A stretch of DNA of 35,501 nucleotides from Candidatus Iainarchaeum sp. (GTDB lineage Archaea > Iainarchaeota > Iainarchaeia > Iainarchaeales > JAFCCJ01). Positions 1,070 through 30,233 of this stretch are shown here, in pieces (the stretch's first letter is position 1; every line of letters begins with the position of its first letter). The notes beneath the pieces were generated by a model, which made no database searches, was not told the origin of the DNA, and worked only from the letters and a program-made list of their open reading frames with translations. A program made the translations under genes and the position numbers. The stretch lies in the NCBI GenBank assembly GCA_043816965.1, contig JBDRHK010000022.1, positions 1 through 35,501 on the forward strand, given 5' to 3'.

Positions 1070-1101
1070 CGCACCGGAAACGCACTCCCGAAACTATTAA
1101 T
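1070..1101 (+). promoter_or_regulatory. CGCACCGGAAAC motif copy 1 plus BRE/TATA-like element
   Basis: 12-mer at 1070-1081, then CCCGAAA and TATTAAT (1095-1101). ATG 56 bp after motif start. Confidence 0.75.
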
Positions 1102-1125
1102 CAACCCCTAATTTCTATTATTTGA

Positions 1126-2112
1126 ATGACTGAAAATTTATTTCTCTCTCTAAAAAAAGGAGAACAGAAAAAGATATTAAGATTTTTAAAAAATAAACTT
1201 GGATTAAGCTGGGATAAAATCGCCGATAATTTGAATGTCAACAGAAGCATGGTCTTCTTTTATTTACGTGAAACTTGTAGGTTGCCCTATTCAAAATATT
1301 TGTTTCTTTGCAATCAGGCAAATGTTCCGCCAAAAGACTTTTTGAATGGAGAAATCGTAGAGATAAAAGGCGGCATAAATAAAGCCAAGAAGCCCCGCAA
1401 TAGTAAAAGATTCTTTGAATTTTTAGGCGCCATGTATGGGGACGGATGTTTAACTTCAGGTTATTGTGTAGCTTTAACCTGTAATGCAATTTCAGATAAG
1501 AAATATGTATTAGACAATTTTTCCAGGAATTTTTCAAAATTATTTGGGATGGAACTGGCAATAAGGATCCAACATAATGCGATACATTGCAGAACTTACT
1601 CAAAAGATATATTTCATTATCTTTCAAAATCTGGTTTCCCAATAGGCAAGAAGAAAAATAGAATGAGGATCCCGTCGATAGTTAAGTCTAATCGAGAGTA
1701 TTCAAAAACTTTCTTGAGAGGGCTTTTTGACACTGATGGCGGATTTCACAGACACAATCCAAAATCAGCAAAAGTTGAATTTACAAGTTATAGTAAAGAA
1801 TTTTTGAAGGATGTTCAAGATCTTCTCGGTTCTCTGGGATTCACGCCGGTAAAAATTGGAAATTGTTGTTATATAATGTCTAAACAAGGGATAGGCCAAT
1901 TTTTTAATGAAATTAAGCCTAATAACCCAAAACATAATTATAAGTACAAAAAATACAAAGAGGAAGGTCAAGTGCCAAGGCACAGGGATATAGACTATGA
2001 AAACATAGATTTTTTCAGAATAATCTGTGAGGATGATGCGACCGTCGGGACTCGAACCCGAAACAGAAGCTTGGGAAGCTCCGATGTTGCCATTACACCA
2101 CGATCGCCATAA
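1126..2112 (+). CDS. Free-standing two-motif LAGLIDADG endonuclease-like protein with N-terminal HTH
   Basis: FFEFLGAMYGDG and FLRGLFDTDG motifs. HTH-like LSWDKIADNLNVNRSMV. Last ~25 codons run antisense through tRNA-Gly. Confidence 0.85.
   Translation: MTENLFLSLKKGEQKKILRFLKNKLGLSWDKIADNLNVNRSMVFFYLRETCRLPYSKYLFLCNQANVPPKDFLNGEIVEIKGGINKAKKPRNSKRFFEFLGAMYGDGCLTSGYCVALTCNAISDKKYVLDNFSRNFSKLFGMELAIRIQHNAIHCRTYSKDIFHYLSKSGFPIGKKKNRMRIPSIVKSNREYSKTFLRGLFDTDGGFHRHNPKSAKVEFTSYSKEFLKDVQDLLGSLGFTPVKIGNCCYIMSKQGIGQFFNEIKPNNPKHNYKYKKYKEEGQVPRHRDIDYENIDFFRIICEDDATVGTRTRNRSLGSSDVAITPRSP
2037..2107 (-). tRNA. tRNA-Gly(CCC)
   Basis: Reverse complement GCGATCGTGGTGTAATGGCAACATCGGAGCTTCCCAAGCTTCTGTTTCGGGTTCGAGTCCCGACGGTCGCA folds as a cloverleaf. 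Anticodon CCC, no encoded CCA. Confidence 0.95.
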
Positions 2113-2143
2113 TGAACCACTACACTACGGCTGCATCATAAAA

Positions 2144-2157
2144 CTTTCGCGCGAAAG
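2144..2157. promoter_or_regulatory. Perfect palindrome CTTTCGCGCGAAAG, probably back-to-back BREs of divergent promoters
   Basis: 14-bp palindrome flanked by TTTTATGA (minus, toward the tRNA) and TTTAATT (plus, toward ORF 2189). Confidence 0.5.
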
Positions 2158-2188
2158 CCATTTAATTGTTTTACCCCCTCAATTTTGA

Positions 2189-2599
2189 ATGGTGGAAGCA
2201 TCTATTGAAAAGAAGGCTCTTGCCCTGAGAAAAGAAATGCTCAGGACAAGGATGCCCGCACCTCGAGCGAAATATGTCCTTTTCTGTCTGAAAAATAGTG
2301 TAGAGGTTGTTGTTAGTAATAATAAGCCAAATGTAATTGATTTGAGCCCTGGGAAAAGAGAAAGAATTACTCTTGGTCGAGAAGATATTCTGACTGGCTT
2401 ACTGAAATTGCAACGTAAGGGCGAAGCAGATGCTGGATTAAAGTATGCTGAACAGGTGCTTAAGCACGGCTTTATGCTCAACGCTTTTGGATATCTGGCT
2501 AATCTCTCAAAAAGCCAAGAACTTTCCTTTAACAGGCTGACCCAGAAAAATCGGAAAAGACAGGGCGGAAGGCCGGGCATACACAAGAGGCCCCTGTAG
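2189..2599 (+). CDS. Hypothetical basic protein
   Basis: 136-aa ORF with TATA-like element upstream. No recognised motif. Confidence 0.55.
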   Translation: MVEASIEKKALALRKEMLRTRMPAPRAKYVLFCLKNSVEVVVSNNKPNVIDLSPGKRERITLGREDILTGLLKLQRKGEADAGLKYAEQVLKHGFMLNAFGYLANLSKSQELSFNRLTQKNRKRQGGRPGIHKRPL

Positions 2600-2655: not shown

Positions 2656-3786
2656 ATGGACGAGCTAAAACTGATTTACCTGATTAATTTCCTCAGGAGA
2701 GTTTTTATATTCTCCACCCAATTCTACCTCCCCTTCTATTTTCTTGAGCTAGGTTTTAACGGTCTGGAAGTGGGTGTGCTTTTTGCATTTTTTGCAATCC
2801 CCTCCCTGCTTACAACCCTCCCCACAGGCCTTTTAAACGACAGGTTCACGGTTAAAAAACTGATTTTTTTCGGCCTTCTTATGCTAATGGTACATTACAT
2901 AGGCCTTGCATTAACCAATTCCTTTTTCCTGATGGCAATAATTCTTTTCATAGGGGGACTGGGGAACAACATCTCTGAAACCTCGATAAGCTCATTTGTC
3001 CTGAAAAAGGTAAAAGGCGAAAAGGGGAAGGAATTCAGCATCTACACTTCGGCAAATTTTCTTGGTGTTGCATCAGGCTTTCTCATTGGGGGGATCCTCC
3101 TACAGTTCCTCCCGTTCACAACAGTTTTCTGGATTCTTGCCGCACTTTATTTCCTGCTCCTGTTCCTTACAATTCCCCTCTCTGAAACAATCTTCCACCG
3201 CGAGGAATTGGGAAAATATAAGTCAGACCTGATGAACCGCAATGTCCTTGTTTTTGCCCTGATACTTTTCCTTTTCTCCTTGCACTGGGGCGCGGAAAGG
3301 GTTTCTTATTCCCCGTTCTTAAGGGAAGTTTTAAATCTAAACTTTTTTGAATCCGCAATTTATATGACAATCCCCTTGATTGCCCTTGCTGCAGTAGTGC
3401 TTATTCTTGGGAGGAAAATCGATAAAGTAAAAAGTGTGAGAAAATATTTCTTTGCAGCAATCCTCCTCAGCGGTCTTGGGCACATCGCAATGACAATTCC
3501 CGACCTTGGTATCTCATTCATTTTCAGAGTAGTCCATGAAATTGGCGATGGAGTTCTTGACCTTGTTGTGCTGATAGGAATTGCAAAACTTTTCAAAGAT
3601 GCAAGAATAGGCGGCAATTCCTCATTTATTTTCCTTATGGCAACAGTTGGCCTGTTCATTGGCTCCCTAATCTTCGGGCCAATAGCTGAAATCTACGGCC
3701 ATTCAGCACCCTTAGTAATTTCAGGAATTATTTCGTTAGTTGCGTTAGTGATCGCATTCTTTGGAATGGACTGGATAAAGAAATAA
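2656..3786 (+). CDS. MFS transporter
   Basis: About 12 hydrophobic segments. GLLNDRFTVKK resembles MFS motif A. Confidence 0.88.
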   Translation: MDELKLIYLINFLRRVFIFSTQFYLPFYFLELGFNGLEVGVLFAFFAIPSLLTTLPTGLLNDRFTVKKLIFFGLLMLMVHYIGLALTNSFFLMAIILFIGGLGNNISETSISSFVLKKVKGEKGKEFSIYTSANFLGVASGFLIGGILLQFLPFTTVFWILAALYFLLLFLTIPLSETIFHREELGKYKSDLMNRNVLVFALILFLFSLHWGAERVSYSPFLREVLNLNFFESAIYMTIPLIALAAVVLILGRKIDKVKSVRKYFFAAILLSGLGHIAMTIPDLGISFIFRVVHEIGDGVLDLVVLIGIAKLFKDARIGGNSSFIFLMATVGLFIGSLIFGPIAEIYGHSAPLVISGIISLVALVIAFFGMDWIKK

Positions 3787-3789
3787 ATT

Positions 3790-3855
3790 GGCGAGGCCGA
3801 AAGCCGAGCATGGCCTCCCGAAGGGGGCCGTTCCGTCAACCCGAATAGGGGTTGA
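3790..3855. repeat. GC-rich triple-hairpin element (REP-like or bidirectional terminator)
   Basis: GC-GA-GGC-CGAAA-GCC-GA-GC, GGCCTCC-CGAA-GGGGGCC and TCAACCC-GAATAG-GGGTTGA lie between the convergent MFS and tRNA genes. Related to 19661-19718. Confidence 0.6.
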
Positions 3856-3856
3856 A

Positions 3857-3927
3857 TGCGACCGCCGGGGGTCGAACCCGGGTCAGAACCTTGGCAAGGT
3901 CCTATCCTACCACTAGACTACGATCGC
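3857..3927 (-). tRNA. tRNA-Gly(GCC)
   Basis: Reverse complement GCGATCGTAGTCTAGTGGTAGGATAGGACCTTGCCAAGGTTCTGACCCGGGTTCGACCCCCGGCGGTCGCA. Anticodon GCC. Confidence 0.96.
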
Positions 3928-3985: not shown

Positions 3986-5701
3986 TCAGGTTCTTTTCCT
4001 CATAAAAAAGAGTTGTTGTACTATTGCCATGGCAATTATTCCCACTACAACCCCAATTCCTATGAATGTAGGCCACTGCCGCCCAAGCAATTCCTCAATC
4101 AGGTTTTTTGGCTCGGGTTTTGGCGGCATTTCCCCATTTTTGAAAACCGCGAGGGAATTATCCTCCCCAATATCAATCCTGTAAATCTCCGGGGGCTTTG
4201 CGCCTATTTTAACGTAGAGTGTTCCTGGGACAAAATCCTTGAAAGAATAGGAAAATGTTTGCCTTCTTTTCCCGGGAATCGTCTCCTCATACTCTGTAAA
4301 CGCCCCTGAATAATTCAGTTCAATTGGAATCCTGCCCTCATTCAGGCCACTGTTATAGAATGTAATCTTAATGGTTAAGCCCTCAGCGTCAATAGTAGGA
4401 ACAACACTCTCAATCTCCATTAATGCCTCCACCTGCTCCCCAGCATAATAGGGATAAACATCAATGCCCCCTGAAAAATTCTGGTCCATTCCCTGCAAAC
4501 TGAAGGAATAGCGTTTCTTGAAACCATCATCCCCGTTTAGTGGGGCATAAATTTCCCAGGAAATTGTTTTGGTTTCCTGCGGTTTCAGCCAAACCAGCCT
4601 CTTTTCATCACCGAACTCAAAATCCTCGTGCATTGAGAGGCTTAAAGGATAGATAATGTGTTTTTCTGTTTTGTTTTCAATAACTGCATTGATGTCAAAG
4701 AGCTGGTTCAGGTAAAGGAAATCAGGCGCAGAAACTTCCATAGAGGTAATCCCCTCAAAGAATTCAACCGAATTTATCTCGACCTCCGGCTCCAGGAGCT
4801 GGGTTGAGACAGTTATCGGCCTTCTGCTTCTCAGGGTAACAATCAGGTTTACCATTGCATTTGCATCGGCCTCTTTTGCGAGTGAAATATGGGTTCCATC
4901 AAGATAGCCAGATTCCCCATATGTGGAATCAACCCCGGCCCAAGTATCTCCTGCCAGTGCCTCAATCCAGCCATGGTTGCCGAATTTCTCCCCGTCAAAA
5001 CTAATTCCTGAGACATATCTTGCAGGAATTCCCTTAATCCTCAGGAACGCCCCGCTGAGATTTGCGAATTCATCACAAACCCCTTTCCTGCTTAGATAGG
5101 TTTCTTTCGCACTCCATGTCCCCCCATAGTAATCATAATCATATTCGATGTTCCTGTTTACCCATTCAGCAATATCTCGCATCGCCAGAATTCCTGATTC
5201 AGATGCAAATTCCAGCTCTGCCTTTTGAATAAGCTCTGAGTCATTGGATTCAATATTTTCGGTATTCCAGATGAATTTCTGCAGGGCGGGAGTAATCTTG
5301 ACAGGGAGGCTGAAATCCCCCACCATTCCTGGCAAGGATTCAGTAACTATGTCGGCATTTATCTCAACCGTAAAGTCCCTGCTGTTTTTGAATCTCTGCA
5401 AATCGCTCACATCAAATGAGGCATACTTGTTACCGTTGTCAATCTCATACCTTGGCCTGAAAACCTCATCGCCAATAAGCAGTTTCTCATCAATACCGGT
5501 TATCTTGTGGTCCAATGTGTCTGAAAAGGTGAGCATGCTCACAATCATTAAGTCACCATCGCCAATATTGCCCTCAATAGTCCCTGTGGCACGCAATTTC
5601 ACGGAAACATCAAGGGATTTTACTTTGTTAGGCGCAAATGCATTTGTGTTTGCTGAAAGTGCCAGAAGCAAAATCAGGATAATGGCAATTGATTTCTTCA
5701 T
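3986..5701 (-). CDS. Secreted, membrane-anchored transglutaminase-like (Cys protease fold) protein
   Basis: Signal peptide MKKSIAIILILLL (ATG at 5701 overlaps the upstream stop). GVCDEF / HGWIE / VDST Cys-His-Asp triad. Ig-like region and C-terminal TM. Confidence 0.85.
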   Translation of the reverse strand: MKKSIAIILILLLALSANTNAFAPNKVKSLDVSVKLRATGTIEGNIGDGDLMIVSMLTFSDTLDHKITGIDEKLLIGDEVFRPRYEIDNGNKYASFDVSDLQRFKNSRDFTVEINADIVTESLPGMVGDFSLPVKITPALQKFIWNTENIESNDSELIQKAELEFASESGILAMRDIAEWVNRNIEYDYDYYGGTWSAKETYLSRKGVCDEFANLSGAFLRIKGIPARYVSGISFDGEKFGNHGWIEALAGDTWAGVDSTYGESGYLDGTHISLAKEADANAMVNLIVTLRSRRPITVSTQLLEPEVEINSVEFFEGITSMEVSAPDFLYLNQLFDINAVIENKTEKHIIYPLSLSMHEDFEFGDEKRLVWLKPQETKTISWEIYAPLNGDDGFKKRYSFSLQGMDQNFSGGIDVYPYYAGEQVEALMEIESVVPTIDAEGLTIKITFYNSGLNEGRIPIELNYSGAFTEYEETIPGKRRQTFSYSFKDFVPGTLYVKIGAKPPEIYRIDIGEDNSLAVFKNGEMPPKPEPKNLIEELLGRQWPTFIGIGVVVGIIAMAIVQQLFFMRKRT

Positions 5702-8700
5702 TTTGACACGCCTTTCTTGAGTAAAGCCCTCATCCATGTCCTAAGGTTACTTCCCAAAAAGCCAAGCACAAGGAGTATGGCGATCTGAATTATCAGGACA
5801 GATACTGATGCAATTGACCCCATAAACACATACAAAAGTGCAGGAATAGCGCCGAAAAGTATTGAAAATACAATCCTGCCCCCGAACCTCAAGATTCTCA
5901 ATGGCATGTTTTTCATGTCCGTTACTGCGGGAATGAAATAACTTGTTTCAATAAATGCAAGGACTGTAATTAGTATATACGCCATTATGAAAAGCAGAAC
6001 AAAGAGCATATTTTGCCTAACCAGATCCTCATCCAGGATAATTATTGCCTGGTTTGGCAGCACGAAAACAGTTTCAGATTCCTTGCGCCCGCGGAACGTT
6101 TTCTCCAGAGTATATTTCCCTACATGGACATTAATCAGTATCTGGCCGGTCTCCCTCACCTGGAATGCTAATTCCCCCTTTTCATCTGATTCCATTTCCT
6201 GTTTCTTTCCTGATGCATAAATAACTTTGGCCCTGAAAGGGACGGTTTTGCCGCTTTTTTCGTTAAACAAAACAATGTGCTGGTCATCGCCGATTTTAAC
6301 AGTTGAGCTGTAGTCGATACGCCAGTTGTTGCTCTGTGCATCCAATGGGTCTGTTCCTTCCTCAACCTCATCATAATCATTTACCAAATCCCCGTCAGTA
6401 TCCGCAAGATAGAGGTCAGTCCCTGCCTGTAACTCGTCCCAATCGCTTAAGCCATCTCCGTCACTGTCCAGCTGTCTCAGCATTTCCTCATCCAACTTAT
6501 CTGTTGCAATGCACCTGCCACCAACACAATGGGTGCCTTTATTGCACACTTTAATGGCTTTTTCCTTGTCATTGCAGTCCCTGTCCTTTGGAACCCCGTC
6601 GCCGTCCTCATCGTTTGGATCCTTTTCTCCACCCCCTCCTGGTGAGCCTGAATACTGTTCTGGTGGCCTGCAGCCAGGTATTGGTGTGTGTTGGCAGTAT
6701 GCTGCTGGCAATCCCTGGTTGAAGCATTCATCTATTGTACAATCGCTGCTATCAGCACAGCTCCCCGCACTAAAGCATGCGGGGCTTATGCAGGTTCCAG
6801 TGCTGCAAACTTCCAGAACACCACACGTAACATCACCTGGGCAGGTTGAGCAATCCTCTCCGGAATCAACAGAACCATTGCCGCAGTTTGCCGCACAATC
6901 AGGGTCCTCACCCGAGGTACATCCTGACGGGCATGCACCATCGTCATCACCACAAATAGCGGCAACATTTTCGCACAATGCCGCACAGCTCGAGGGGTTT
7001 AAACAGGTATCAATTGTTGCCGGATTTCCATCATCACATGCGGCATCATCCCCGCAAGGGATTCTATGCACAGCAGAACAGCAGAAACCATCCACATATG
7101 CGGTTCCCCCACAATCACATCTTGAGCTAATTTCCCCATCAGGACATATGGCGCAGGCAAGATCCCCATCAGCACAATCCTGGTCAATCCCATCCAGGCA
7201 AATTTCAGTTGTTGGCTCAATCGAACCAGAGCACTCCCCCCATAATCCGGCATTGCATGTTTCTGTTCCGGCAATGCATGCACCAACATCAGTCCCACAA
7301 ATCCTGGTAACTTCATTATCTATAGTTTCGTCACAGTCATTATCGAGATTGTCACAGATTTCATCAATCGGGCTAACACTCCCTTCGCATGGCCCCCAGA
7401 CAGCACTTGAACAGGTCTGGATTCCGGTGCTGCATTCTCCAAGATCACTCCCGCAGGTTCTGGTGGTGCCGTTAACACAGCTGCAGCCCTCATCAGTTAT
7501 CCCGTCACAGTCATTGTCCAGGTTGTCGCAGTAGGCCGGTGAGGTTTCATCTAGGGCATAATCCGAGCCATAATCACACGGGCTCCAGCCAGTTGTGCCC
7601 TGGCACACCCTGTCTGAGCTTGCCCCGACACACACTCCCTGGTTCAATGGGCAACTTGGCGGTGTCAGGCTTTCATCTGTAGAACCATCACAGTCATTGT
7701 CCAAACCATCGCAGGTTTCGGTTGAAGGCAAAATCTGCCCGATGCAGTTTGACCACTGGCCAGAAACGCAGATTCTTTCTCCTTGCTCACAAACCCCGAC
7801 ATCGCTTCCGCACGCCTGCCTCGTGCCGTTAACACAGCTGCAGCCCTCATCAGTTATCCCGTCACAGTCATTGTCCAGGTTGTCGCAGTAGGCTGTTGTC
7901 TCAATCGCCACATAACTTGCCCCGTAATTTGTTGCCGTGCATGTCAGCCATCCCTGCGAGCCACCGCAGGTTCTTGTTGCCCCGGCACAAACCCCCTGAA
8001 TAAGCGAGCAGGAAGGCGCAATAAGTCCCTCATCAATGGAAGCATCACAGTCATTGTCCAAACCATCGCAGATTTCTGTTGAGGGCAGAATTGCCGAGCA
8101 CGAGCCCCAGCTTCCCTGGATGCAGGTCCTTGTTCCCATTGCGCATTGCCCGACATCAGTGACTCCGCAGGCTTGCGAGATCCCGGTGATGCATTCACAT
8201 TCCTCATCAACAGAGCCGTCACAGTCATTGTCCAGGTTGTCGCAGTATAAATTGGTCTCAACAGCAACATAACTTGCCCCGTAATTTGTTGCCGTACATG
8301 TCAGCCAGCCGCTTGTGCCCCCGCAGGTCCTTATTGAGCCGGCACAAACCCCCTGTTGTCTGGAACAAAAAGGCGCAGTAAGTCCCTCATCAGTAGAAGC
8401 ATCACAGTCATTGTCCAAACCATCGCAGATTTCGGTTAATGGGGGAATCTCCCCTATACATTCCGTGCCCCAGTCCCCATCTTCACACAAATAGTATCCC
8501 GCCTGGCACAGGCCGGCATCTGTTCCACAAATATCTGTTGTTCCATCAATGCAATTACATCCGGGGTCTGTGATATTGTCACAATTGTTGTCAATCCCGT
8601 CACAAACTTCGGTAGCCCCAGGGTTTATTCCAACCCCTGTTATTGGGGTATCGTCGCAGTCTGCTGAGGAAAATGAGCATATTGCTGAAGCAGGAAAACC

Positions 8701-9294
8701 ATAACCATCCCCGTCGTTATCATAACAAATCTCTGTTGACACAGAGCCGCCGATTACTGTCACTGAAATCCGCTGTGAATTGGGGTCGCCCACAATCACA
8801 TTTAAGAAGCTCAAGGCGCTTGTCCCTGGCGTATCTGCGTAGAACCTGATGGTTGCAAGCACACCATTGCCCGTAACACCGTTAGGAATATTCCTTGTGC
8901 ATGAAATTTTACCGATAGAGCCTGTCCCCATTACCCACTGGCTTGAGGAATTGCAGTACTGCTCCCCGGCAGTTCTGGATCCCAAAACAGTGTCGGAAAA
9001 AGTTATGCTCTGAAAGTTGAGCCTTGAATCATTGTAAAGTAAATCAAACTGATAGCCATAAATGTTTGGGACATTATCAACCCTTATATTAACATTAAAG
9101 CTATTCCCTACTTCAATGGTTTGTGTTTGCGGGGAAATTGAAAAAGTGGGGGTTCCCTGGAAAATAAGCGTAAAGAAGCCCTGGTTTAAGCCCGGGGAAA
9201 CAGAGATGAGAAGAATAAAAATTGCCAAAATAGCCGCTAAAAAAACCGCGAAATAAGTAAGTTTTGAATAACTCTCCGGCATGTCATAGCCCAC
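5698..9294 (-). CDS. Large surface protein: cohesin domain, Cys-rich EICDGLDNDCD repeats, TSP3-like Ca repeats and C-terminal TMs
   Basis: N-terminal TM. Cohesin-like VGNSFNVNIRVDNVPNIYGYQFDLLYN. About 9 MopE-like CDxxDNxCD repeats, DSDGDGLSDWDE and 3-4 terminal TM helices. Start is 9294 (GTG) or 9282 (ATG). Confidence 0.8.
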   Translation of the reverse strand: MGYDMPESYSKLTYFAVFLAAILAIFILLISVSPGLNQGFFTLIFQGTPTFSISPQTQTIEVGNSFNVNIRVDNVPNIYGYQFDLLYNDSRLNFQSITFSDTVLGSRTAGEQYCNSSSQWVMGTGSIGKISCTRNIPNGVTGNGVLATIRFYADTPGTSALSFLNVIVGDPNSQRISVTVIGGSVSTEICYDNDGDGYGFPASAICSFSSADCDDTPITGVGINPGATEVCDGIDNNCDNITDPGCNCIDGTTDICGTDAGLCQAGYYLCEDGDWGTECIGEIPPLTEICDGLDNDCDASTDEGLTAPFCSRQQGVCAGSIRTCGGTSGWLTCTATNYGASYVAVETNLYCDNLDNDCDGSVDEECECITGISQACGVTDVGQCAMGTRTCIQGSWGSCSAILPSTEICDGLDNDCDASIDEGLIAPSCSLIQGVCAGATRTCGGSQGWLTCTATNYGASYVAIETTAYCDNLDNDCDGITDEGCSCVNGTRQACGSDVGVCEQGERICVSGQWSNCIGQILPSTETCDGLDNDCDGSTDESLTPPSCPLNQGVCVGASSDRVCQGTTGWSPCDYGSDYALDETSPAYCDNLDNDCDGITDEGCSCVNGTTRTCGSDLGECSTGIQTCSSAVWGPCEGSVSPIDEICDNLDNDCDETIDNEVTRICGTDVGACIAGTETCNAGLWGECSGSIEPTTEICLDGIDQDCADGDLACAICPDGEISSRCDCGGTAYVDGFCCSAVHRIPCGDDAACDDGNPATIDTCLNPSSCAALCENVAAICGDDDGACPSGCTSGEDPDCAANCGNGSVDSGEDCSTCPGDVTCGVLEVCSTGTCISPACFSAGSCADSSDCTIDECFNQGLPAAYCQHTPIPGCRPPEQYSGSPGGGGEKDPNDEDGDGVPKDRDCNDKEKAIKVCNKGTHCVGGRCIATDKLDEEMLRQLDSDGDGLSDWDELQAGTDLYLADTDGDLVNDYDEVEEGTDPLDAQSNNWRIDYSSTVKIGDDQHIVLFNEKSGKTVPFRAKVIYASGKKQEMESDEKGELAFQVRETGQILINVHVGKYTLEKTFRGRKESETVFVLPNQAIIILDEDLVRQNMLFVLLFIMAYILITVLAFIETSYFIPAVTDMKNMPLRILRFGGRIVFSILFGAIPALLYVFMGSIASVSVLIIQIAILLVLGFLGSNLRTWMRALLKKGVSK
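7466..8310 (-). repeat. 357-bp-period intragenic tandem repeat
   Basis: 7466-7536 is identical to 7823-7893 (71 nt). The block starting at 7911 recurs at 8268. Both offsets are 357 nt (119 aa). Confidence 0.85.
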
Positions 9295-9297: not shown

Positions 9298-9840
9298 TTA
9301 TTTTTTGATTACTAAAAAATATGCAGCTGCTGCAACAATAATCAGAACCACGACAACAATAACTACAAGGGTTAAATCAAGGCCTGCTCCGCCGGTTCCG
9401 GTATTGGTAGGGTTAACAGTTGGGGTGGACTGTACTGCATTAGGATTCCCAAGCTTCACGCCGCTTACCGATAAGCCCTTGTCCCCGTCACCAATTTCCT
9501 TGAAATTAATTTTAAGCAAAATTCCGTCACCGTTTACTCCTGGAACTTTACCGGTTTTTGTGACCACAAAATTTTTCAGAAGACCAGGGGTATCGGTGTT
9601 GGCTGTTTTGAAATAGACTCCTGCAGAATCTCCTCCTGAAATAAGTCCACCTTCTTCCGCATTCACAAATTCAAGTGCAGCGGAATTGTAATTAACATTC
9701 AGTTGGAAACCATAAAGATCTTCAGCTCCTGAAACAGAAATTGTAAGTACCCCATTTGAATAGTCCGAACTTACCTCAGACGCAGAAACTGCCGAAAGCA
9801 GGAAAAAAATCGAAACAATAATCAAAAGTCTTTTCATCAT
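9298..9840 (-). CDS. Membrane-anchored single cohesin-domain protein
   Basis: Signal peptide. LYGFQLNVNYNSAALEFVNAEEG...GDGILLKINFK is cohesin-like. Thr/Pro linker and C-terminal TM ending KK. Confidence 0.78.
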   Translation of the reverse strand: MMKRLLIIVSIFFLLSAVSASEVSSDYSNGVLTISVSGAEDLYGFQLNVNYNSAALEFVNAEEGGLISGGDSAGVYFKTANTDTPGLLKNFVVTKTGKVPGVNGDGILLKINFKEIGDGDKGLSVSGVKLGNPNAVQSTPTVNPTNTGTGGAGLDLTLVVIVVVVLIIVAAAAYFLVIKK

Positions 9841-18798: not shown

Positions 18799-18847
18799 TT
18801 TCTCCCGTAAACCCGGCCCTTAGGTTCTCCGTGAGGGATAGCAGTTC

Positions 18848-18903: not shown

Positions 18904-19323
18904 ATGAAACTGATTTATCTGGATACGAACATATGGATTGATTTTTGGGAGAACAGAAGCGATGGCTTAAGGCCATTGGGGGAGTTTGCTTTCAATGTTC
19001 TGAAAAGGGCATATAACTGTGAATTCAAAGTAGTTGTCTCATCAATACTTATGGCTGAATTGAAATTTAATTATGGGGCGGAAACAGTAATGGAAATGCT
19101 AAAGGATCTCCGAAGAAGCAAAAAACACATTTACATTTATGCTGATAAAGAACACAATAAATCCGCATTAGAGTATTCCAAAAAAACAGGAATTGGTTTC
19201 AATGATTGCCTGCACGCAGTACTTGCCAAAGCAAGGGGATGTGATTGTCTCGTTACACAAAATATGAAGCATTTTGAGAGATTAGAGTTCCTCATCAAAC
19301 CCAAATTCCCTGGTGATCTCTAG
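18904..19323 (+). CDS. PIN-domain ribonuclease (VapC-like toxin)
   Basis: IYLDTNIWID, E, DCLH, LVTQNMKHF. Confidence 0.9.
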   Translation: MKLIYLDTNIWIDFWENRSDGLRPLGEFAFNVLKRAYNCEFKVVVSSILMAELKFNYGAETVMEMLKDLRRSKKHIYIYADKEHNKSALEYSKKTGIGFNDCLHAVLAKARGCDCLVTQNMKHFERLEFLIKPKFPGDL

Positions 19324-19578: not shown

Positions 19579-19660
19579 ATTATGCACTATATCTAAAGAG
19601 TATATAAATGATACTGTTGAAATTTGCCTAAAAAGGAGTTGTGTGAAGGCAGACAATATT

Positions 19661-19718
19661 TGGCGAACGAAGTGAGCCATGTCTCCCCGAAGAGGAGGCA
19701 GTCGTGTACACGGAGACA
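19661..19718. repeat. GC-rich hairpin element related to 3790-3830
   Basis: TGGC-GA-AC-GAA-GT-GA-GCCA then TGTCTCC-CCGAAGA-GGAGGCA (alternative partner GGAGACA). Confidence 0.55.
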
Positions 19719-19725
19719 GCCGTTT

Positions 19726-19760
19726 CGCACCGGAAACCCGCCCCCGAAATCATTTATAAA
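19726..19760 (+). promoter_or_regulatory. CGCACCGGAAAC motif copy 3 plus BRE/TATA
   Basis: 12-mer at 19726-19737, CCCGAAA, TTTATAAA at 19753-19760. ATG 58 bp after motif start. Confidence 0.78.
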
Positions 19761-20940: not shown

Positions 20941-21192
20941 ATGTATGAAACCGTACTTTCCTCGAAAGGCCAGATTGTTCTCCCGGCGAAGATAAGAAAG
21001 GATGAGAAGTGGAAAAAAGGGGAAAAATTTGTTGTAAAAAGAACTCCCTTTGGGGTCATGATAATCAACATCCCCAAAAATCCCATTAAAGCCTTGAGGG
21101 GAATAGCAAAACATATGAATATTTCCGACAAAGAGATCAAAGAGATGAGGAAGAAAAATGAACAGCACGACATTGCAGAAAAAAATATTTGA
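20941..21192 (+). CDS. AbrB/MazE-type antitoxin
   Basis: VLSSKGQIVLPAKIR. Overlaps the downstream PIN gene. Confidence 0.9.
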   Translation: MYETVLSSKGQIVLPAKIRKDEKWKKGEKFVVKRTPFGVMIINIPKNPIKALRGIAKHMNISDKEIKEMRKKNEQHDIAEKNI

Positions 21193-21571
21193 CACTTCTG
21201 CCCTTAAGAGGTTTCTAAGTGATGAAAAGGGCAGCGACGAAATGGCTAAAATGTTGGAGGATGGCTTAAAGAAAAATGAGAATCTTCTGGTAAGCACTTT
21301 AAGCGTATATGAACTAGCTCTGATAATGGGGCGGAGAAATGTTGAAGAGGCAGTGGTGGCAATTTCATTCATTGAAAAAATATGCAGATTCATTTCACCA
21401 AACACTGAAATTTCGCAGAATGCCGCCTTACTAAAAATCAAGCACCCTAAGGCCGATATTTCAATGGCCGACGCAATAATACTCCAGACAGGAATTAAAG
21501 AAAGAGCAGAAATAATAACTGCTGATAAGGAATGGAAAAAAATTGTGGAGGCTGATGTAAAAATTATTTGA
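21158..21571 (+). CDS. PIN-domain toxin (VapC)
   Basis: IFDTSAL, VYEL, ISMADAII, IITADKEW. Confidence 0.9.
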   Translation: MNSTTLQKKIFDTSALKRFLSDEKGSDEMAKMLEDGLKKNENLLVSTLSVYELALIMGRRNVEEAVVAISFIEKICRFISPNTEISQNAALLKIKHPKADISMADAIILQTGIKERAEIITADKEWKKIVEADVKII

Positions 21572-21840: not shown

Positions 21841-22034
21841 TGGATGAAAAGGAAATGATTTTCAAGTTCTGTCCAAAGTGCGGGTCAAAAGAGCTTAAGA
21901 CATGGGTTAATGCCCCTGACTCAATATCTGCCAAAATGGTCTGCAACTTTTGCAATACTATAAATCTGCCATTTGAGGGAACAGCAAAATTTATCTCAAA
22001 ATTTAAAAAAAGGATTGAAAGTGAAAAAAAATGA
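21840..22034 (+). CDS. Small Zn-ribbon protein
   Basis: CPKCGS...CNFC. Translationally coupled to herA (ATGA overlap). Confidence 0.75.
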   Translation: MDEKEMIFKFCPKCGSKELKTWVNAPDSISAKMVCNFCNTINLPFEGTAKFISKFKKRIESEKK

Positions 22035-23566
22035 GCAATAAGGAAATCGGAACAGTAGTTTCCACCCTGGACGGGCCATCCCCATCCTTTTTGGATTTTG
22101 TTGTCAACGAAGGGACAATCCACAGGGGCCAGTTTGTTGAGATGGATTACTCTGAGGGAACCATGATTGCACTGGTTCAGGATGTGATTAAAACAAACCG
22201 CTATTTTGAGAGGGCGGAAGCCGTTAAGGAATTCGAATCATCTGGGAGGAAATTATTTGAGCAGTTCCCCACAACTGAGTGGGAGTATCTCCTTGCAAAA
22301 ACCCGCCCAATGGGAGTTTACAGCAAGGGGATGATAAAGCGTTCCTCATTCCCTCCCTCGCCAGGAACAAGGGTAAGAATAGCATCAGCTGAAAACCTTA
22401 AAAAATTTCTCGGTTTTGATGAGGATGGCCTGCATTTGGGGGAAGTTGAATATCATTCACTTCCGGTGAAATTAAACATGACTAAATTACTTTCAAAACA
22501 TCTTGCTGTTTTGGCAATGTCCGGAGCTGGAAAAAGCGTTGCAACCAGGGTGATGATGGAGGAACTCCTTACAAGGGAAAAGGAAAAGGGGCGAATGGCA
22601 ATTGTCGTTATGGACACACACGGAGAATACACTTCTTTTGCAGAACCAGTAACCGATAAGGAGCACAAGGATTATTCCTCAAAGACAAAAGTCATAAAGG
22701 CAAGGGACATAAAAATCGGCGTGCCGAAACTCACAATAGGAATCCTTTCAGGAATGATTCCTGGTTTAAGTGCAGCGCAGAGGAGGGATCTGGGAAGGAT
22801 TTTAGAAAGAATGAAAAAGGAAATGAAGGATGGATTGGGGCCATTTGATTTGGGCGCGCTGAGGACTGAGCTTGCAAAAGATTCTGAACTAAAAGACAAT
22901 ACAAGAAAGGCCCTTATGGGATGGATAGCTACCCTTGACCAATTAAAACTTTTCTCTAAAATAGATTCTCCCAGCATTTCTGATCTGATAAAACCCGGCC
23001 AATTGACAATTGTTGATTTAAGTGATTTAATCAACATGAAAAAGAAGCAGATGATTGTCAGTTACTTCGCCCAGAAACTTTTCTACGAAAGGAGAAACCA
23101 CAAAATCCCGCCTTTTCTTTTGGTACTTGAGGAAGCCCACCAATTAGTTCCTGAAGGAACATCAAAAGAGGGCGCAATTTCGAGGCCGATAATTGAAACA
23201 ATCGCAAGGGAGGGGAGAAAATTCAATGCCTCGCTTTGCCTGATTTCCCAGAGGCCGATTCAGCTTTCCACAACAGCTCTCTCCCAGTGCAACACACACT
23301 TAATATTGCGTGTAACTAATCCATATGATTTGGACCACATAGGAAAAGGTTCTGAAGGGTTAGACAGGAGAAGCTTGGACATGATAACTTCCCTCAGGGT
23401 GGGAGAGGGCCTGCTTGTGGGGGAAGCAGTTAATTATCCTGTTTTTTTCAAGGTGAGAAAGAACAATTCCCTGGAATCAAAGCATGAAATTCCCCTTGAA
23501 GAGGCCGCAATAAACTTTGAGAAAAAGAAAGAGGAAATCCGCGAAGAGGCAGAGGAATTTTTGTGA
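22031..23566 (+). CDS. herA: HerA bipolar helicase/ATPase
   Basis: HAS-barrel-like N-terminus, HLAVLAMSGAGKS, DTHGEY, LEEAH, REGRKF, SQRP. Confidence 0.92.
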   Translation: MSNKEIGTVVSTLDGPSPSFLDFVVNEGTIHRGQFVEMDYSEGTMIALVQDVIKTNRYFERAEAVKEFESSGRKLFEQFPTTEWEYLLAKTRPMGVYSKGMIKRSSFPPSPGTRVRIASAENLKKFLGFDEDGLHLGEVEYHSLPVKLNMTKLLSKHLAVLAMSGAGKSVATRVMMEELLTREKEKGRMAIVVMDTHGEYTSFAEPVTDKEHKDYSSKTKVIKARDIKIGVPKLTIGILSGMIPGLSAAQRRDLGRILERMKKEMKDGLGPFDLGALRTELAKDSELKDNTRKALMGWIATLDQLKLFSKIDSPSISDLIKPGQLTIVDLSDLINMKKKQMIVSYFAQKLFYERRNHKIPPFLLVLEEAHQLVPEGTSKEGAISRPIIETIAREGRKFNASLCLISQRPIQLSTTALSQCNTHLILRVTNPYDLDHIGKGSEGLDRRSLDMITSLRVGEGLLVGEAVNYPVFFKVRKNNSLESKHEIPLEEAAINFEKKKEEIREEAEEFL

Positions 23567-24324: not shown

Positions 24325-25476
24325 ATGGTTGAAATAATGCTTCTTGGAACCGGGCTTCTGGCATTTATTGCCGGCCTTTTTGTACTTGTTTTCGGCAGCG
24401 ATAAGCTTGTTGAGTCAGCCGTGAACATTGCAAAAATGCTGAGCATATCGACATTCATAATCGGCCTAACTTTAGTCGGAATAGGAACATCCCTCCCTGA
24501 ACTTGCCTTTGCGATAATTGCAACCATGAATGACAGCGCAGGATTTGTTTTGGGGGATGTGATTGGCTCAAACATAGCAAATATTGGCCTTGTGCTTGCA
24601 CTTGCAGTTTTGTATGGAGGAACAATAAAAATTAAGAGGCGAATCCTGAACATTGATGGCATAATCCTTCTCGGAATAACAGTTCTCTTTTTGCTCCTGA
24701 TGATCGATGGGGCAATCTCCTTCTCAGATGCTTTGATACTGCTGCTTGTTTACCTCTTCTACCTGCTCTTCCTGTTTGAATCCCTTTCAAGCCTTATGAA
24801 GGTTCTCGATATAAGCAAGATGATGGGTGCCTTGTTCCATGTTGGGGGCAGCATATGGAACCTTCATACACTTTTCCAAATGAAGGAAAAGGGCCTTACT
24901 GTAAAAACATATGAAAACATTGTTGATGCAAAATTGGATGGTAAGGATGCAAAGGAGATGATTGAAAACAAGCGCAAGGGAAAGGATTTCATAACAATAT
25001 TTCGTGAAATTCTTTTTGCCGAAATATTCAAAAATTTCGGGGTATTAATTGCCTCGATTTTCATAATATTCATTGGCGCACTTTTAATGGTTGAGGGGTC
25101 TGTGAGGCTTGCGACATTTTTTGGCGTCTCTGATGACCTGATAGGCCTGACAATTGTCGCAATAGGGACCTCCCTCCCTGAAATGGCGGTTTCATTTGCG
25201 GCAATCAAGAAAAAAACAGGCAATATACTGATTGGAAACATTTTGGGCAGCAACATATCAAACATACTCCTAATAATCGGGCTATCCGCAGTCATAAACC
25301 CGATAATAGTCCCCTCCTCAGTTATCATCCCCGCCATCATGATGCTGGTTATTACTGCCCTCTTATTGCAGGCCATTGTCAAGGAATATGATATTACTAA
25401 AAAAGAGGCATTGTTCCTGCTGGTATTTTACATAGTATTCGTTGTTTCCCTGCCTTTTATCACTTCTGTAGGATAG
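24325..25476 (+). CDS. Ca2+/Na+ antiporter (YrbG/NCX family)
   Basis: Two alpha repeats GTSLPE...GSNI. Confidence 0.94.
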   Translation: MVEIMLLGTGLLAFIAGLFVLVFGSDKLVESAVNIAKMLSISTFIIGLTLVGIGTSLPELAFAIIATMNDSAGFVLGDVIGSNIANIGLVLALAVLYGGTIKIKRRILNIDGIILLGITVLFLLLMIDGAISFSDALILLLVYLFYLLFLFESLSSLMKVLDISKMMGALFHVGGSIWNLHTLFQMKEKGLTVKTYENIVDAKLDGKDAKEMIENKRKGKDFITIFREILFAEIFKNFGVLIASIFIIFIGALLMVEGSVRLATFFGVSDDLIGLTIVAIGTSLPEMAVSFAAIKKKTGNILIGNILGSNISNILLIIGLSAVINPIIVPSSVIIPAIMMLVITALLLQAIVKEYDITKKEALFLLVFYIVFVVSLPFITSVG

Positions 25477-25503
25477 CACAGGAAATAACTCTAAAGGTAA
25501 ATC

Positions 25504-25542
25504 CGCACCGGAAACCTACCCTCTCCTGAAATCCTATTTAAA
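25504..25542 (+). promoter_or_regulatory. CGCACCGGAAAC motif copy 4 plus BRE/TATA
   Basis: 12-mer at 25504-25515, CCTGAAA, TATTTAAA at 25535-25542. ATG 61 bp after motif start. Confidence 0.75.
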
Positions 25543-25564: not shown

Positions 25565-27088
25565 ATGAAGACTCCCAATAGCATCTTCTGGCTAGCAACT
25601 GCAAGATATCTTCCTGAAAAAAGGGAAATGGTTGTTGAATTCTCCAATTCATTAAGCAAGGTTGTGGAGAGGTTCAAATTTTTCCCCTCCTTTTATGTTG
25701 AGGGAATTAACAGTGAAAGATTAAATGCCGCGATTAAAAAGGAAGAGCTGAAGCGGTTCCAGTTCCTTGAGGAAGGGGAAGGCTGGAAAGTTGTTGGGGC
25801 GACATTTACTGATTTACTTAATCTTTCTGATGAACTGCATAAAAAAGGGCTGACGCCATTGCTTCTTGGGCCGGAAAGGCAGTTCTTGCTTGAAAGGGAA
25901 TGGAGCTATTTTGACTGCTTCAGTATTGAATCAGGAAATATAATTAAACTTTCAAATTTTCTGGTGCCCAACACCTCACTTAACTTTTTGCCGACAAATC
26001 TGGGCATGGCTTTGGAGGAGATTAATGGGGTAGGGGGGGAGGCTGCGGGAGGTTTTGCCAAAAGAATTGCGGTCTCCAATCTCCTCTCAATTCCTTTGGA
26101 ACACGCAATTCCTGATGCAGTAAAGAATGCGGAGGCCTTTATCGAGAACATTTATTTCAGGAAAAACATTTCACTGCAAAAAGGAACACCCAATAACATA
26201 GCAACCAAACCAAAAGTGAAGGGAAGGTTTGAGGATGTTGCCGAACTGAATTTCTCAAAGCTATGGGGCATGCTCCTGACTTTTCCGTTTTTTAATCTGG
26301 GCGCTGAAACAATCAACTGCAAATGCTGCAAGCCAGAGAACCTAAGCGCGGCAAACCTTTTGCCCAATTCACTTGTAAGGGTAAAATTCAATTCCAATGG
26401 ATTTTATTTCCAGTCCTGCAGCAACTCATGGGCAGAGGAGTTTCACGGCAAAAATCCGGGAAAAAGCGAAAGGATAAGCCACATGAAAGAGTGGTCGCTT
26501 GATTCAATTCCTGCCGGCCCGTTTTTCGAGGGCGATATTGAGCCAATTCCGCTGGCAGATTACAGGGAACTTTCGGAAAATGGAACACTTTCCCTACTCT
26601 CTGGAAATTATGCCCTGAAATGGTTCTGCAGGAAAAGGGAATCATCCCTCTCCATCGCAGTAAACGGCCTGAATAGGCAGCTTATTGCAGTAAAAACTGA
26701 AACTGAAAAAAAACAGAGGGAGCTTATAAGGCAGTCAAATCTCCTGGCATATCAGGAAATTACCTCAGAATCAAGGCAGATTTACCTTGGCTCCTATGCA
26801 CTTTTAATAGGGGAAATAATTGAAAAAATCCCCGAACTTGCCGCTTCTAATTCTAGTCTGTTCTCAAGAGAGATGATTGAGGGCATTGAATGTATCAAGT
26901 CCTCAGTCCTTGGCAAATTCAGGGGGTTTGCAGCCATAAATGGCGTAAAATGCATCCCCCTGGATTCCAGCCGGGCATATATTGATTCAGACTCTGCGCT
27001 GAAATTTCTGGAGAATTTCTCGGAAAAATTCAGCATTCCCCGCCCTGAAATCCTTTCCCACAGGAAATACGTGTCCCTCAACATATAA
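25565..27088 (+). CDS. Degenerate family-B DNA polymerase-like protein (PolB2-like, probably inactive)
   Basis: FFPSFYV N-domain. ELNFSKLW...NLGAETINCKCC aligns by eye with PolB2 motif A (xDFxSxYP...NIS.ET..C.CC) with Asp replaced. WFC follows. No DTD motif. Confidence 0.6.
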   Translation: MKTPNSIFWLATARYLPEKREMVVEFSNSLSKVVERFKFFPSFYVEGINSERLNAAIKKEELKRFQFLEEGEGWKVVGATFTDLLNLSDELHKKGLTPLLLGPERQFLLEREWSYFDCFSIESGNIIKLSNFLVPNTSLNFLPTNLGMALEEINGVGGEAAGGFAKRIAVSNLLSIPLEHAIPDAVKNAEAFIENIYFRKNISLQKGTPNNIATKPKVKGRFEDVAELNFSKLWGMLLTFPFFNLGAETINCKCCKPENLSAANLLPNSLVRVKFNSNGFYFQSCSNSWAEEFHGKNPGKSERISHMKEWSLDSIPAGPFFEGDIEPIPLADYRELSENGTLSLLSGNYALKWFCRKRESSLSIAVNGLNRQLIAVKTETEKKQRELIRQSNLLAYQEITSESRQIYLGSYALLIGEIIEKIPELAASNSSLFSREMIEGIECIKSSVLGKFRGFAAINGVKCIPLDSSRAYIDSDSALKFLENFSEKFSIPRPEILSHRKYVSLNI

Positions 27089-29609: not shown

Positions 29610-29668
29610 CTGATAATTAGGCCTGGAATTGTTTAAAGCCCTAATGCTTTCACAGAAAAATAGACATT

Positions 29669-29929
29669 CTAAAGAAGGGTCATTCCCTCTAATTCTGCCT
29701 CTTCAACAGACTCAAGGGAATTCAATTCAGCAGTAACTGCCTCGATTGCGCCCTCTTGCTTTTCCTCAACAAGGATTCCTGCCTTAATCATCTCAACCCC
29801 GAAACCAATCGGGTCCCTCTGGACATCCTTTACTTCGCCGGATTTAACGCCCCTAATCTCCTTCTCGCATTCCTCAAGCTTTTCCATGTCCTTAGCTTTA
29901 ACCCTGTAAATCAGAAAGGTCTTCCCCAT
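29669..29929 (-). CDS. ef1b: Elongation factor 1-beta
   Basis: DPIGFG motif. Lies downstream of the Zn-ribbon gene, as in the conserved archaeal pair. Confidence 0.88.
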   Translation of the reverse strand: MGKTFLIYRVKAKDMEKLEECEKEIRGVKSGEVKDVQRDPIGFGVEMIKAGILVEEKQEGAIEAVTAELNSLESVEEAELEGMTLL

Positions 29930-29940
29930 AGAACCACCAA

Positions 29941-30093
29941 TTATGGCCCTTCAAAGCCGCAGCTGCATTGATAGGTCTTAGATGTCGACCTGCAATGGCC
30001 GCACCTTATGATAATTTCCTTATCGCATTTCGGGCACTTGAATTCCACATAATCGCCTGTTACTTCTTTATTGCAGGTAGTGCATATTTTCAT
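29941..30093 (-). CDS. Zn-ribbon RNA-binding protein (DUF1610-like, 50 aa), absent from ORF track
   Basis: MKICTTCNKEVTGDYVEFKCPKCDKEIIIRCGHCRSTSKTYQCSCGFEGP. Conserved neighbour of EF-1beta. Confidence 0.9.
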   Translation of the reverse strand: MKICTTCNKEVTGDYVEFKCPKCDKEIIIRCGHCRSTSKTYQCSCGFEGP

Positions 30094-30198
30094 TCTAATC
30101 CCCCAAAAATCATTTACAAAAGCTTAAAATAAGCAGTATTAAGTAATTCTATTGTAATAGCTTTAAAAAGCTTATATTGGGCCAATCTGCTAATTGTT

Positions 30199-30233
30199 CG
30201 CACCGGAAACCTACTCTCAAAACCATATACAAA
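30199..30233 (+). promoter_or_regulatory. CGCACCGGAAAC motif copy 5
   Basis: 12-mer at 30199-30210, weaker TATACAAA at 30226-30233. ATG 56 bp after motif start. Confidence 0.7.

Follow-up and report, generated by a model that had tools for sequence, protein, structure and literature searches.

A promoter-proximal box predicted to define a genome-maintenance regulon in Iainarchaeales-type archaea

Contig JBDRHK010000022.1 of Candidatus Iainarchaeum sp., analyzed over its 35,501 nucleotides and referred to here as the window, carries a 12-nucleotide box, CGCACCGGAAAC, in five promoters. The window is contig C22 of an Iainarchaeales-type DPANN metagenome-assembled genome (MAG; G000) of 1.34 Mb in 109 contigs, 86% complete and 1.4% contaminated. 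The box is real, functional-looking, and conserved, a promoter-proximal site that would define a genome-maintenance regulon of an uncultivated archaeal order. A single sequence-specific DNA-binding protein probably binds the element and thereby co-regulates genome-maintenance genes in Iainarchaeales-type DPANN archaea. The same site stands before functionally related, unlinked genes at a fixed geometry, the generic signature of a transcription-factor regulon. Its conservation before orthologues and its variants, which co-vary within genomes, likewise suggest a regulon. To our knowledge, the Sulfolobales are the only archaea in which a regulon of replication or repair genes has been defined, and we know of no DPANN archaeon that is yet genetically tractable. 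A literature search returned no description of the element in DPANN or other archaea; in titles and abstracts, the literal 12-mer appeared only in papers on antibiotic-resistance genes, unrelated to archaeal promoters.

A discrete promoter class

In the window, CGCACCGGAAAC occurs five times, at positions 1070, 18848, 19726, 25504, and 30199, all on the + strand, and none of 100 dinucleotide shuffles contains any match. The box starts lie 56, 56, 58, 61, and 56 nt before the ATG of a first LAGLIDADG gene (LAGLIDADG-1), a PIN gene, nurA, the gene of a 507-aa protein, and a second LAGLIDADG gene (LAGLIDADG-2), so that the copies and distances of the original prediction, which was made from the letters of the window, are reproduced by the exact match count and the start-codon distances. 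A C-rich stretch follows each box, and a TATA-like hexamer begins +27, +28, +27, +33, and +27 nt from the box start, 28–31 nt upstream of the ATG in all five promoters. This layout had also been predicted, with a weak TATA box in copy 5; the hexamer is weak in both copy 1 (TTAATC) and copy 5 (TATACA). Allowing up to two mismatches adds just two window matches, at 2053 (+) and 7420 (−), against 1.18 expected. Neither has the promoter layout, and at this tolerance no copy precedes a housekeeping gene of the window, as had been claimed.

Across the MAG, the exact box occurs 17 times, in promoter position and orientation in every case, and the reversed-pattern control occurs not once; one-mismatch copies number 17 against six in the control. 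The regular expression [CG]GCA[CT]CGGAA[AG]N gives 40 matches, of which 32 have a TATA box in place and were kept. The eight dropped matches lie at C33:3694, C37:7046, C44:4399, C50:15111, C103:19190, C103:19928, C109:152, and C50:19381 (contig and position), the last of these being the distal member of a double box. A position weight matrix (PWM) spanning positions −3 to +21 scores all 32 sites at 28.0 bits or more, the next best match in 1.34 Mb reaches 14.1 bits, and the reversed genome has two matches above 12. The sole new PWM match with the full promoter layout is a 33rd site, at C31:3245, with 12.2 bits.

Over the 32 sites, positions 13–24, which were unused in picking the sites, read CYACYCCCGAAA with 0.7–1.8 bits each, and positions −3 to −1 read TTY; no conservation over all sites extends beyond −3 to +35. 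The TATA box starts +26 to +33 from the box start in 32 of 32 sites. The whole element thus spans ∼24 bp, TTY-CGCACCGGAAAC-CYACYCCC(GAAA), in which the 12-mer is the invariant core and the end lies 2–8 bp 5' of the TATA box; it is asymmetric and not palindromic. Several promoters carry a second, weaker box 26–29 nt upstream (window 25475–25486, C50:19381, two sites on contig C28, and sites in relatives).

The distance from box to start codon, based on our own open reading frame (ORF) calls, is 53–63 nt in 20 of the 32 sites, and most of the remaining sites have a longer leader with a Shine-Dalgarno-like word. Relative to the ATG, TATA-like hexamers are most frequent at −32 to −27 and Shine-Dalgarno-like words at −14 to −9 in ∼1,100 crude ORF calls from the MAG. 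The TATA peak indicates that leaderless transcripts are common in this genome; the box keeps its distance from the ATG because it keeps its distance from the TATA box. Among 160 other leaderless-type promoters of the MAG, CGAAA occurs in three and CYCC in ten, with no conserved sequence upstream of the TATA box. The C-rich and GAAA stretch is therefore specific to the boxed promoters and is not the usual TFB-recognition element (BRE), and the earlier reading of (C)CYGAAA as a generic BRE does not hold. The boxed promoters form one discrete, sharply separated class consisting of box, C-rich extension, and TATA box, mostly leaderless.

The same geometry bears on a reading offered in the original prediction, in which an alternative basal factor, such as a second TFB or TBP resembling TFB3 of the Sulfolobales, recognizes the box and CCCGAAA as an extended BRE. 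The conserved stretch does reach the TATA box and cover the BRE position, and ordinary promoters of this genome are without BRE-like conservation. However, an archaeal BRE directly abuts the TATA box, whereas the invariant core lies 15–26 bp 5' of it, and in other families the GAAA part is lost while the core is kept. The search of the 86%-complete assembly found a single TFB gene, whose frame encodes two cyclin repeats; for TBP, it found one full gene and a weak, sub-threshold TBP-like half-domain match (E 3e-4), and no second full gene. A dedicated basal factor is on these grounds very unlikely.

Targets of the 32 sites were annotated with Pfam and NCBIfam. The host genome-maintenance targets are MCM (which contains an intein), RadA, NurA, an SSB-like OB-fold protein, the 507-aa protein, which has a family-B DNA polymerase (PolB) fold, an enzyme with radical-SAM and helix-hairpin-helix domains, and an 84-aa protein. 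Thus, the genome-wide scan that had been proposed as a check, with all 17 exact copies in promoter position, bears out the predicted enrichment, here for mcm, radA, nurA, ssb-like, PolB-fold, and nuclease genes. Site 33 precedes a DHH/DHH-CID/DHHA1 gene, a domain set that suggests a GAN/Cdc45-RecJ-like protein. Two of the host promoters have long leaders: the radA box lies 130 nt from the ATG (C50:9026–9154, −) with a 61-codon ORF in between, and the SSB-like gene has a double box 209 nt upstream, with a 31-codon ORF between. The gene of the conserved 84-aa protein carries the box in three genomes, which belong to two families (G000, locus L009; G001, L030; G026, L065), and the protein has no Pfam or PDB sequence match. 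A fold search for it returned no row below E 0.3, with PC4 and Pur-alpha chains among the weak rows; since these matches are weak and non-significant, the label 'PC4-like' stays a guess. Four strands and a long helix are predicted for this protein (C21:3670–3921 region).

Conservation across the order

The same-genus genome G001 has 11 exact copies. Their targets include the orthologous nurA, PolB-like, MCM, RadA, and PIN genes, an 83-aa gene, and the SSB locus, as well as one LAGLIDADG gene and antitoxin-type genes. The 12-mer is identical (12/12) in seven of seven orthologous promoter pairs between the two genomes. The sequence downstream of the box is ∼90% identical, so that these genomes are too close for footprinting to be informative there. 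G014, from another family, has five exact copies, before MCM, NreA, a Hel308-like helicase, a TnpB-type gene, and a LAGLIDADG gene. A degenerate pattern finds 18 sites in G014, G040, and G026 together, against one in the control, and ∼14 of these have a TATA box in place. Its targets include NreA, a DEAD/ResIII helicase, a PD-(D/E)XK nuclease, DUF488, HEPN, and Bro-N proteins, and a 439-aa gene that follows the PolB-like alignment consensus by eye. In G026, NreA and an orthologue of the 84-aa protein (53% identical) are targets; in G040, the helicase, the PD-(D/E)XK nuclease, and a PolB-like gene. A double box precedes the PolB-like orthologue of G017, and in a record from an uncultured archaeon with a 30%-identical orthologue of the 507-aa protein, the variant GGCACCGGCAAA stands 27 nt before TTTATAAA. 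There is a single exact match each in G016, G026, and G027, and G035 has two matches, neither with the promoter layout. The GAAA part of the extension is not kept in other families, while the core is. The conservation before orthologous nurA and polB2-like genes on which the original prediction was staked is therefore present, and an order-wide likeness exists before mcm and radA.

This likeness comes from a survey of mcm and radA loci in 46 genomes drawn evenly across the order. In 27 mcm promoters from genera outside the PWM training set, the best match to the box core scored more than 3 bits above the mean of its shuffles in 19. A TATA-like hexamer lies 26–32 nt after the box start in 18 mcm promoters, and at 26–27 nt in 13 of these. 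For radA, the best box-like match with a TATA-like hexamer 24–38 nt after its start was taken in 28 promoters; all 28 lie 26–30 nt before the TATA box, and most are recognizable box variants. The radA box is 120–152 nt 5' of the ATG in 18 of the 28 promoters (loci L109–L138), which implies a leader of roughly 65–95 nt.

Lineage-specific variants of the box occur before mcm and radA (CACCGGAAA, CAGCGGAAA, CACCGGCAA, GACCGGAAA, AGTGGAAAT, and AGGGGAAA). In 21 genomes, the mcm and radA boxes of the same genome are alike at 8.67 of 12 letters, against 6.84 ± 0.26 in shuffled pairings, a value reached in 0 of 10,000 permutations. At positions 1–2, which lie outside the PWM, 1.14 letters are alike against 0.57, reached by two of 10,000 permutations. 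The two promoters are unlinked and non-homologous, and drift of their variants together is what one shared, co-evolving reader predicts. We regard this co-variation as the strongest evidence for a common reader that can be had short of experiment.

A second word, (A/T)CTCCCAATAC-like, was seen by eye tens of bases 5' of the box in many mcm promoters across the order (L082–L108). The mcm promoter of the MAG has two tandem copies 15 nt apart, at C5:8161 and 8176 (−), and its other matches in the MAG show by eye no such tandem or promoter layout. This word may be mcm-specific or origin-related.

Several points weigh against a genome-maintenance regulon with one reader. The MAG is incomplete and fragmented (86%, 109 contigs), and its genes were called by a crude ORF rule. 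A look-up of sequencing runs for this DNA listed no RNA data set. The initial choice of sites was made by a regular expression on positions 1–12, with eight of 40 matches dropped by eye. For about one-third of the targets, which are toxin-antitoxin-type or unknown small genes, no connection with DNA maintenance is evident. In the window, no box is present at rad50, hjc, a Toprim primase-like gene, or the stretch directly 5' of herA, and the targets therefore do not take in every repair gene. Of 196 genomes of the order, 22 have an exact long form of the motif (two have its control), so that order-wide presence rests on degenerate best-PWM variants. Picking the best PWM matches favors finding something, and the spacing and permutation controls argue against chance. 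Finally, differences in base composition between genomes could slightly raise the within-genome likeness of the mcm and radA boxes.

Window promoters, accessory genes, and a structured repeat

Promoter module 1 (1067–1102, +) consists of the box at 1070–1081, the C-rich extension at 1082–1093, and the TATA-like TTAATC at 1097–1102, and leads into a free-standing LAGLIDADG_3 gene of 328 aa (1126–2112, +). The 3' end of this frame overlaps a tRNA-Gly(CCC) gene (2037–2107, −). Free-standing LAGLIDADG genes often adjoin tRNA genes in this genome, and a second example is at C81:9279. Module 2 (18845–18881, +; box 18848–18859, extension 18860–18871, TATA-like TTAAGA 18876–18881) precedes a PIN-domain gene of 139 aa (18904–19323, +). 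Module 3 (19723–19760, +; box 19726–19737, extension 19738–19749, TATA TTTATAAA 19753–19760) precedes nurA, which encodes 365 aa from the ATG at 19784 (19784–20881, +). This start is the likelier one, as the in-frame ATG at 19760 falls within the TATA box. On the same strand 3' of nurA lie a PIN gene (21158–21571), two small zinc-ribbon-like ORFs, and herA (22031–23566), none with a box of its own; the NurA site probably covers HerA too. Module 5 (30196–30231, +; box 30199–30210, extension 30211–30222, weak TATA-like TATACA 30226–30231) precedes a second free-standing LAGLIDADG_3 gene, of 280 aa from the ATG at 30255 (30255–31097, +). A tRNA gene at 31124–31217 (+), 27 nt after LAGLIDADG-2, scores 53 bits with Rfam and was missed by ARAGORN; its span of 94 nt suggests that it contains an intron. 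Pfam agrees with the gene names first assigned to both LAGLIDADG genes, PIN, and nurA (LAGLIDADG_3, PIN, and NurA).

Module 4 (25475–25542, +) is a double box, with a distal AGCACAGGAAAT at 25475–25486, a proximal exact box at 25504–25515, and the TATA box TTTAAA at 25537–25542. It precedes the gene of the 507-aa protein (25565–27088, +), which had been called 'PolB2-like'. Family B is supported at the level of fold and finds no match at the level of sequence: the protein has no Pfam, NCBIfam, or PDB sequence match, and ten relatives in a large protein collection are 29–86% identical. An AlphaFold model from a 12-sequence alignment has a mean predicted local distance difference test (pLDDT) score of 86. 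The best Foldseek matches to the model are archaeal family-B DNA polymerases (E 5.8e-12, probability 1.0, query template-modeling score 0.49–0.58), which supports a 'PolB-like' designation for the predicted fold. The protein is ∼250 residues shorter than the matched polymerases, and the alignment consensus, inspected by eye, contains no DTD-type motif C. Its catalytic competence appears doubtful.

Two cohesin-domain genes elsewhere in the window are unrelated to the box. One encodes a large, secreted-looking protein with cohesin, MopE-type metal-binding, and TSP3 repeats (5698–9294, −), and the other adjoins it (9298–9840, −).

The largest group of accessory targets consists of LAGLIDADG-type genes, before which 14 of the 32 sites lie. 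Twelve of these have PF14528 matches, including one whose frame continues by read-through into a gene for an Obg-like GTPase; of the other two, one is known by an intein-containing NCBIfam model only and one by a G-D-G motif only. Among the short PF14528-positive frames, 11 of 14 have the box and the three without it look operon-internal, and none of ten other intein-bearing long genes in the MAG has it. The 14 LAGLIDADG proteins are 24–37% identical where BLASTP aligns them, and the box is kept within 0–2 changes in all. At such divergence, unselected promoter DNA would be randomized, which suggests that the box is under selection and not recently copied. The remaining accessory targets are two PIN genes, a MazE-type antitoxin, a DUF2204 nucleotidyltransferase, and DUF7718, and six small ORFs have no family; some of the latter look like HicB-type or AbrB-type antitoxins.

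Two LAGLIDADG sub-families have long flanks in common. In sub-family 1, four cassettes have a box variant of their own, CGCATCGG, and a conserved ORF of 42 codons upstream. The four paralogous ORFs (MNF.N.QLPT...PENLTDRELWILKE..GDF; C5:8478–8609, C25:6567–6698, C15:57867–57998, and C86:7869–8000) each stand directly 5' of a box-bearing LAGLIDADG gene, and hence make up a repeated two-gene cassette. Sub-family 2 comprises three cassettes with a small upstream ORF that has a hydrophobic tail, and a GGCACC variant in two of the three. In both sub-families, the promoter travels with the cassette.

These genes raise the prospect that the reader is itself LAGLIDADG-derived, either as a domesticated helix-turn-helix (HTH)-LAGLIDADG regulator comparable to bacterial WhiA or as a nuclease for which the box is the recognition or homing site. 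LAGLIDADG recognition sites are long and asymmetric, which the length and asymmetry of the element fit, and several of the 14 box-bearing paralogues have N-terminal HTH domains, with 11 of the 14 short PF14528 frames boxed. Against a homing target, the site is intact before the endonuclease genes, where insertion would split it. Against a domesticated binder, a G-D-G/A-type motif with an acidic residue is found in seven of the 14 proteins and would fit active nucleases better. The box-like element also stands before mcm and radA across the order, with no single LAGLIDADG paralogue shown to be conserved alongside, and a LAGLIDADG reader is altogether highly improbable.

A repeated, structured unit of ∼70 nt, termed 'class A', lies directly 5' of the box in eight of the 32 sites. 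It is laid out as GCGAG-hairpin-CGAGCAA-hairpin-GUCGUGUAAAC-hairpin, with conserved single-stranded linkers. A long form lies directly upstream of promoter module 2 (∼18797–18847), and a ∼70-nt copy with two covarying hairpins abuts box 3 (19654–19725, +). The MAG has 22 copies at E < 1e-3, among others C5:7965–8120, C21:4679–4815, C50:9166–9236, C57:1862–1931, C96:4099–4169, C25:4485–4553, and C63:4671–4814. Two of the hairpins have 2–4 pair types per position in ten copies, and orthologous copies in the MAG and G001 differ by compensatory changes. At least eight copies abut the 5' or 3' end of a tRNA gene instead of a box, as does the unit at 3786–3854, which adjoins the tRNA-Gly gene at 3857–3927 in the window. 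Since the unit occurs beside tRNA genes without the box, unit and box are separable modules. Rfam has no family for the box region or the unit, with only tRNAs above the gathering score. Candidate identities for the unit are a small RNA, an insulator or terminator, and a mobile repeat.

The cassettes and the repeat revive the other explanation raised in the original prediction, a portable promoter that spread by duplication or mobility with selfish genes and has no common regulator, the host genes having acquired it by chance insertion. The 14 LAGLIDADG-type targets, the two sub-families with common long flanks and box variants of their own, and the eight sites that abut the structured unit are what it would lead one to expect. 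It accounts for the cassettes and leaves the host genes unexplained: throughout the order, a box-like element stands at this spacing before the single-copy mcm and radA genes, and its variants co-vary within genomes. Outside the sub-families, the flanking sequences show no relationship although the box differs by 0–2 changes, and the box is kept even though the LAGLIDADG proteins are only 24–37% identical. The structured unit is also found beside tRNA genes without a box. Flanks are common only within the two cassette types and the class A unit, unlike the pattern of a mobile promoter or miniature inverted-repeat transposable element. Portable spread as the general explanation is thus unlikely, and binding by a common regulator remains the preferred one.

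Candidate readers and known systems

In the proposed mechanism, a single protein would bind the element and control transcription from about −56 to −33 relative to the start, beside or over the BRE position. The co-regulated host set would comprise MCM, the GAN/Cdc45-like nuclease, RadA, NurA, the SSB-like protein, and the PolB-fold protein, and in relatives NreA and Hel308-like helicases. Free-standing LAGLIDADG genes, PIN and antitoxin-first modules, and TnpB in a relative would share the site, and as carriers of the same site these selfish or accessory genes would be expressed along with the host recombination machinery. Archaeal activators usually sit upstream of the BRE position. As the invariant core lies 5' of the BRE, there is a slight lean toward activation or recruitment. 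A repressor would also suit, given that the extension covers the BRE position and that most TATA boxes are near consensus. The presence of replication genes (MCM and the GAN-like nuclease) in the set makes cell-cycle or replication control as likely as damage control.

An element of 12 + 12 bp with ∼33 targets per genome and co-varying variants across the order provides a concrete handle that can be used as bait for the regulator. For uncharacterized genes, among them several small ORFs and those of the 84-aa and PolB-fold proteins, the box also predicts a genome-maintenance role. Its presence before homing endonuclease genes and toxin-antitoxin modules suggests that these are tied into a host recombination programme, which would time the activity of selfish nucleases.

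The first candidate for the reader is an Orc1/Cdc6 paralogue, because in the Sulfolobales Orc1-2 controls dpo2 and genes of recombination via a short motif in their promoters; by this analogy, the assignment is tentative. The MAG has two Orc1/Cdc6 genes, one at C15:43316–44566 and one cut by a contig end at C3:3–764 (−). Upstream of the latter there is just a poor box-like word, ATTACCGGAAGA. An Orc1-2-type regulator was considered and set aside for this 86%-complete genome, in which both paralogues are Orc1-1-type by match scores (E 3e-58 and 1e-57 with the Orc1-1-type chain 2qby_A, against 3e-13 and 2e-14 with Aeropyrum pernix ORC2, 1w5s, which we take to represent the Orc1-2 clade). No cluster of boxes or of repeats resembling the origin recognition box (ORB) was found beside orc1 in G000, G014, G016, or G017; the single box near orc1 in the MAG (C15:44592) lies downstream of that gene and drives the next one. 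Two other candidates were examined: an E2F/DP-type winged helix (PF02319) has no match in the MAG, and a winged-helix-looking box target of 99 aa in G040 was rejected, having no homologue in G000.

In its fuller form, this candidacy would make the 24-bp element an ORB-derived site, read by an Orc1/Cdc6 paralogue that switches helicase, recombinase, SSB, PolB-like, and end-resection genes on or off, and captured by homing-endonuclease genes, toxin-antitoxin modules, and transposon nucleases; this is one possibility, and not the favored expectation. If it were true, the system would parallel, within the archaea, both the eukaryotic G1/S programme and the bacterial SOS-controlled mobilome, and selfish nucleases would be made exactly when the recombination machinery of the cell is up.

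The archaeal ORB and mini-ORB sites bound by Orc1/Cdc6 are represented by Pyrococcus ORB oligonucleotides and the 13-bp mini-ORB TTCCAGTGGAAAT (PMC1904270). Set beside these, the element has a TTCC...GGAAAY core with a partial dyad, followed after a few bases by a G:C run, and a similar length and polarity; the mcm and radA variants AGTGGAAAT (G021) and CGCAGTGGAAAT (G014) are nearer still to the mini-ORB core (PMC1904270). The dyad spacing differs, being TTCCG-CAC-CGGAA here and TTCCA-G-TGGAA in the mini-ORB, and the run on the same strand is C-rich, not G-rich. On the opposite strand of the box, TTCC is followed by GAA after five or six bases, compared with four in the mini-ORB, which leaves a partial likeness (PMC1904270). 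The box sites are dispersed, with one or two per promoter at a fixed TATA distance, whereas ORBs cluster around an AT-rich unwinding element beside orc1.

The nearest described system is the damage regulon of the Sulfolobales, from which the present one differs in motif, position, and regulator clade. In that regulon, Orc1-2 binds a DNA damage-responsive element (DDRE; 5'-ANTTTC-3') in the promoters of tfb3, ups, ced, dpo2, and recombination genes, and this hexanucleotide lies at −23 to −55 from the ATG (PMC6061795). Both are archaeal, short promoter elements common to a PolB2-type polymerase and recombination-repair genes, and here the PolB-fold gene, radA, and nurA carry the box. The GAAAC of the box is the reverse complement of GTTTC in the 20-bp Sulfolobus consensus given there (PMC6061795). 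However, the present element is far longer, with 12 invariant and ∼12 semi-conserved letters, and it has no exact match to ANTTTC on either strand: the opposite strand of the box with the next base reads GGTTTC or CGTTTC, without the leading A, and the coding strand has no TTTC. The core is at −56 to −45 from the ATG, 5' of the TATA box, compared with −23 to −55 for the DDRE, and replication genes are apparent co-members, whereas the replication initiators of Sulfolobus are repressed (PMC6061795).

The comparison extends to two further kinds of system, one of them bacterial. With regard to function, the bacterial SOS regulon offers what seems the best analogue. In that system, a LexA operator is common to the recombinase, ssb, a specialized polymerase, and nucleases, and has been captured by mobile elements and toxin-antitoxin modules. 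The present element belongs to another domain of life and to a TATA/TFB-type promoter, and its site is asymmetric instead of a LexA palindrome. The upstream activating sites of archaea, such as those of Ptr2 and GvpE, adjoin the BRE/TATA at a fixed distance, are sometimes doubled, and serve small sets of operons with known regulators. The box is likewise fixed 5' of the BRE/TATA and sometimes doubled, and differs in its set of targets, which would form a genome-maintenance regulon conserved across the order.

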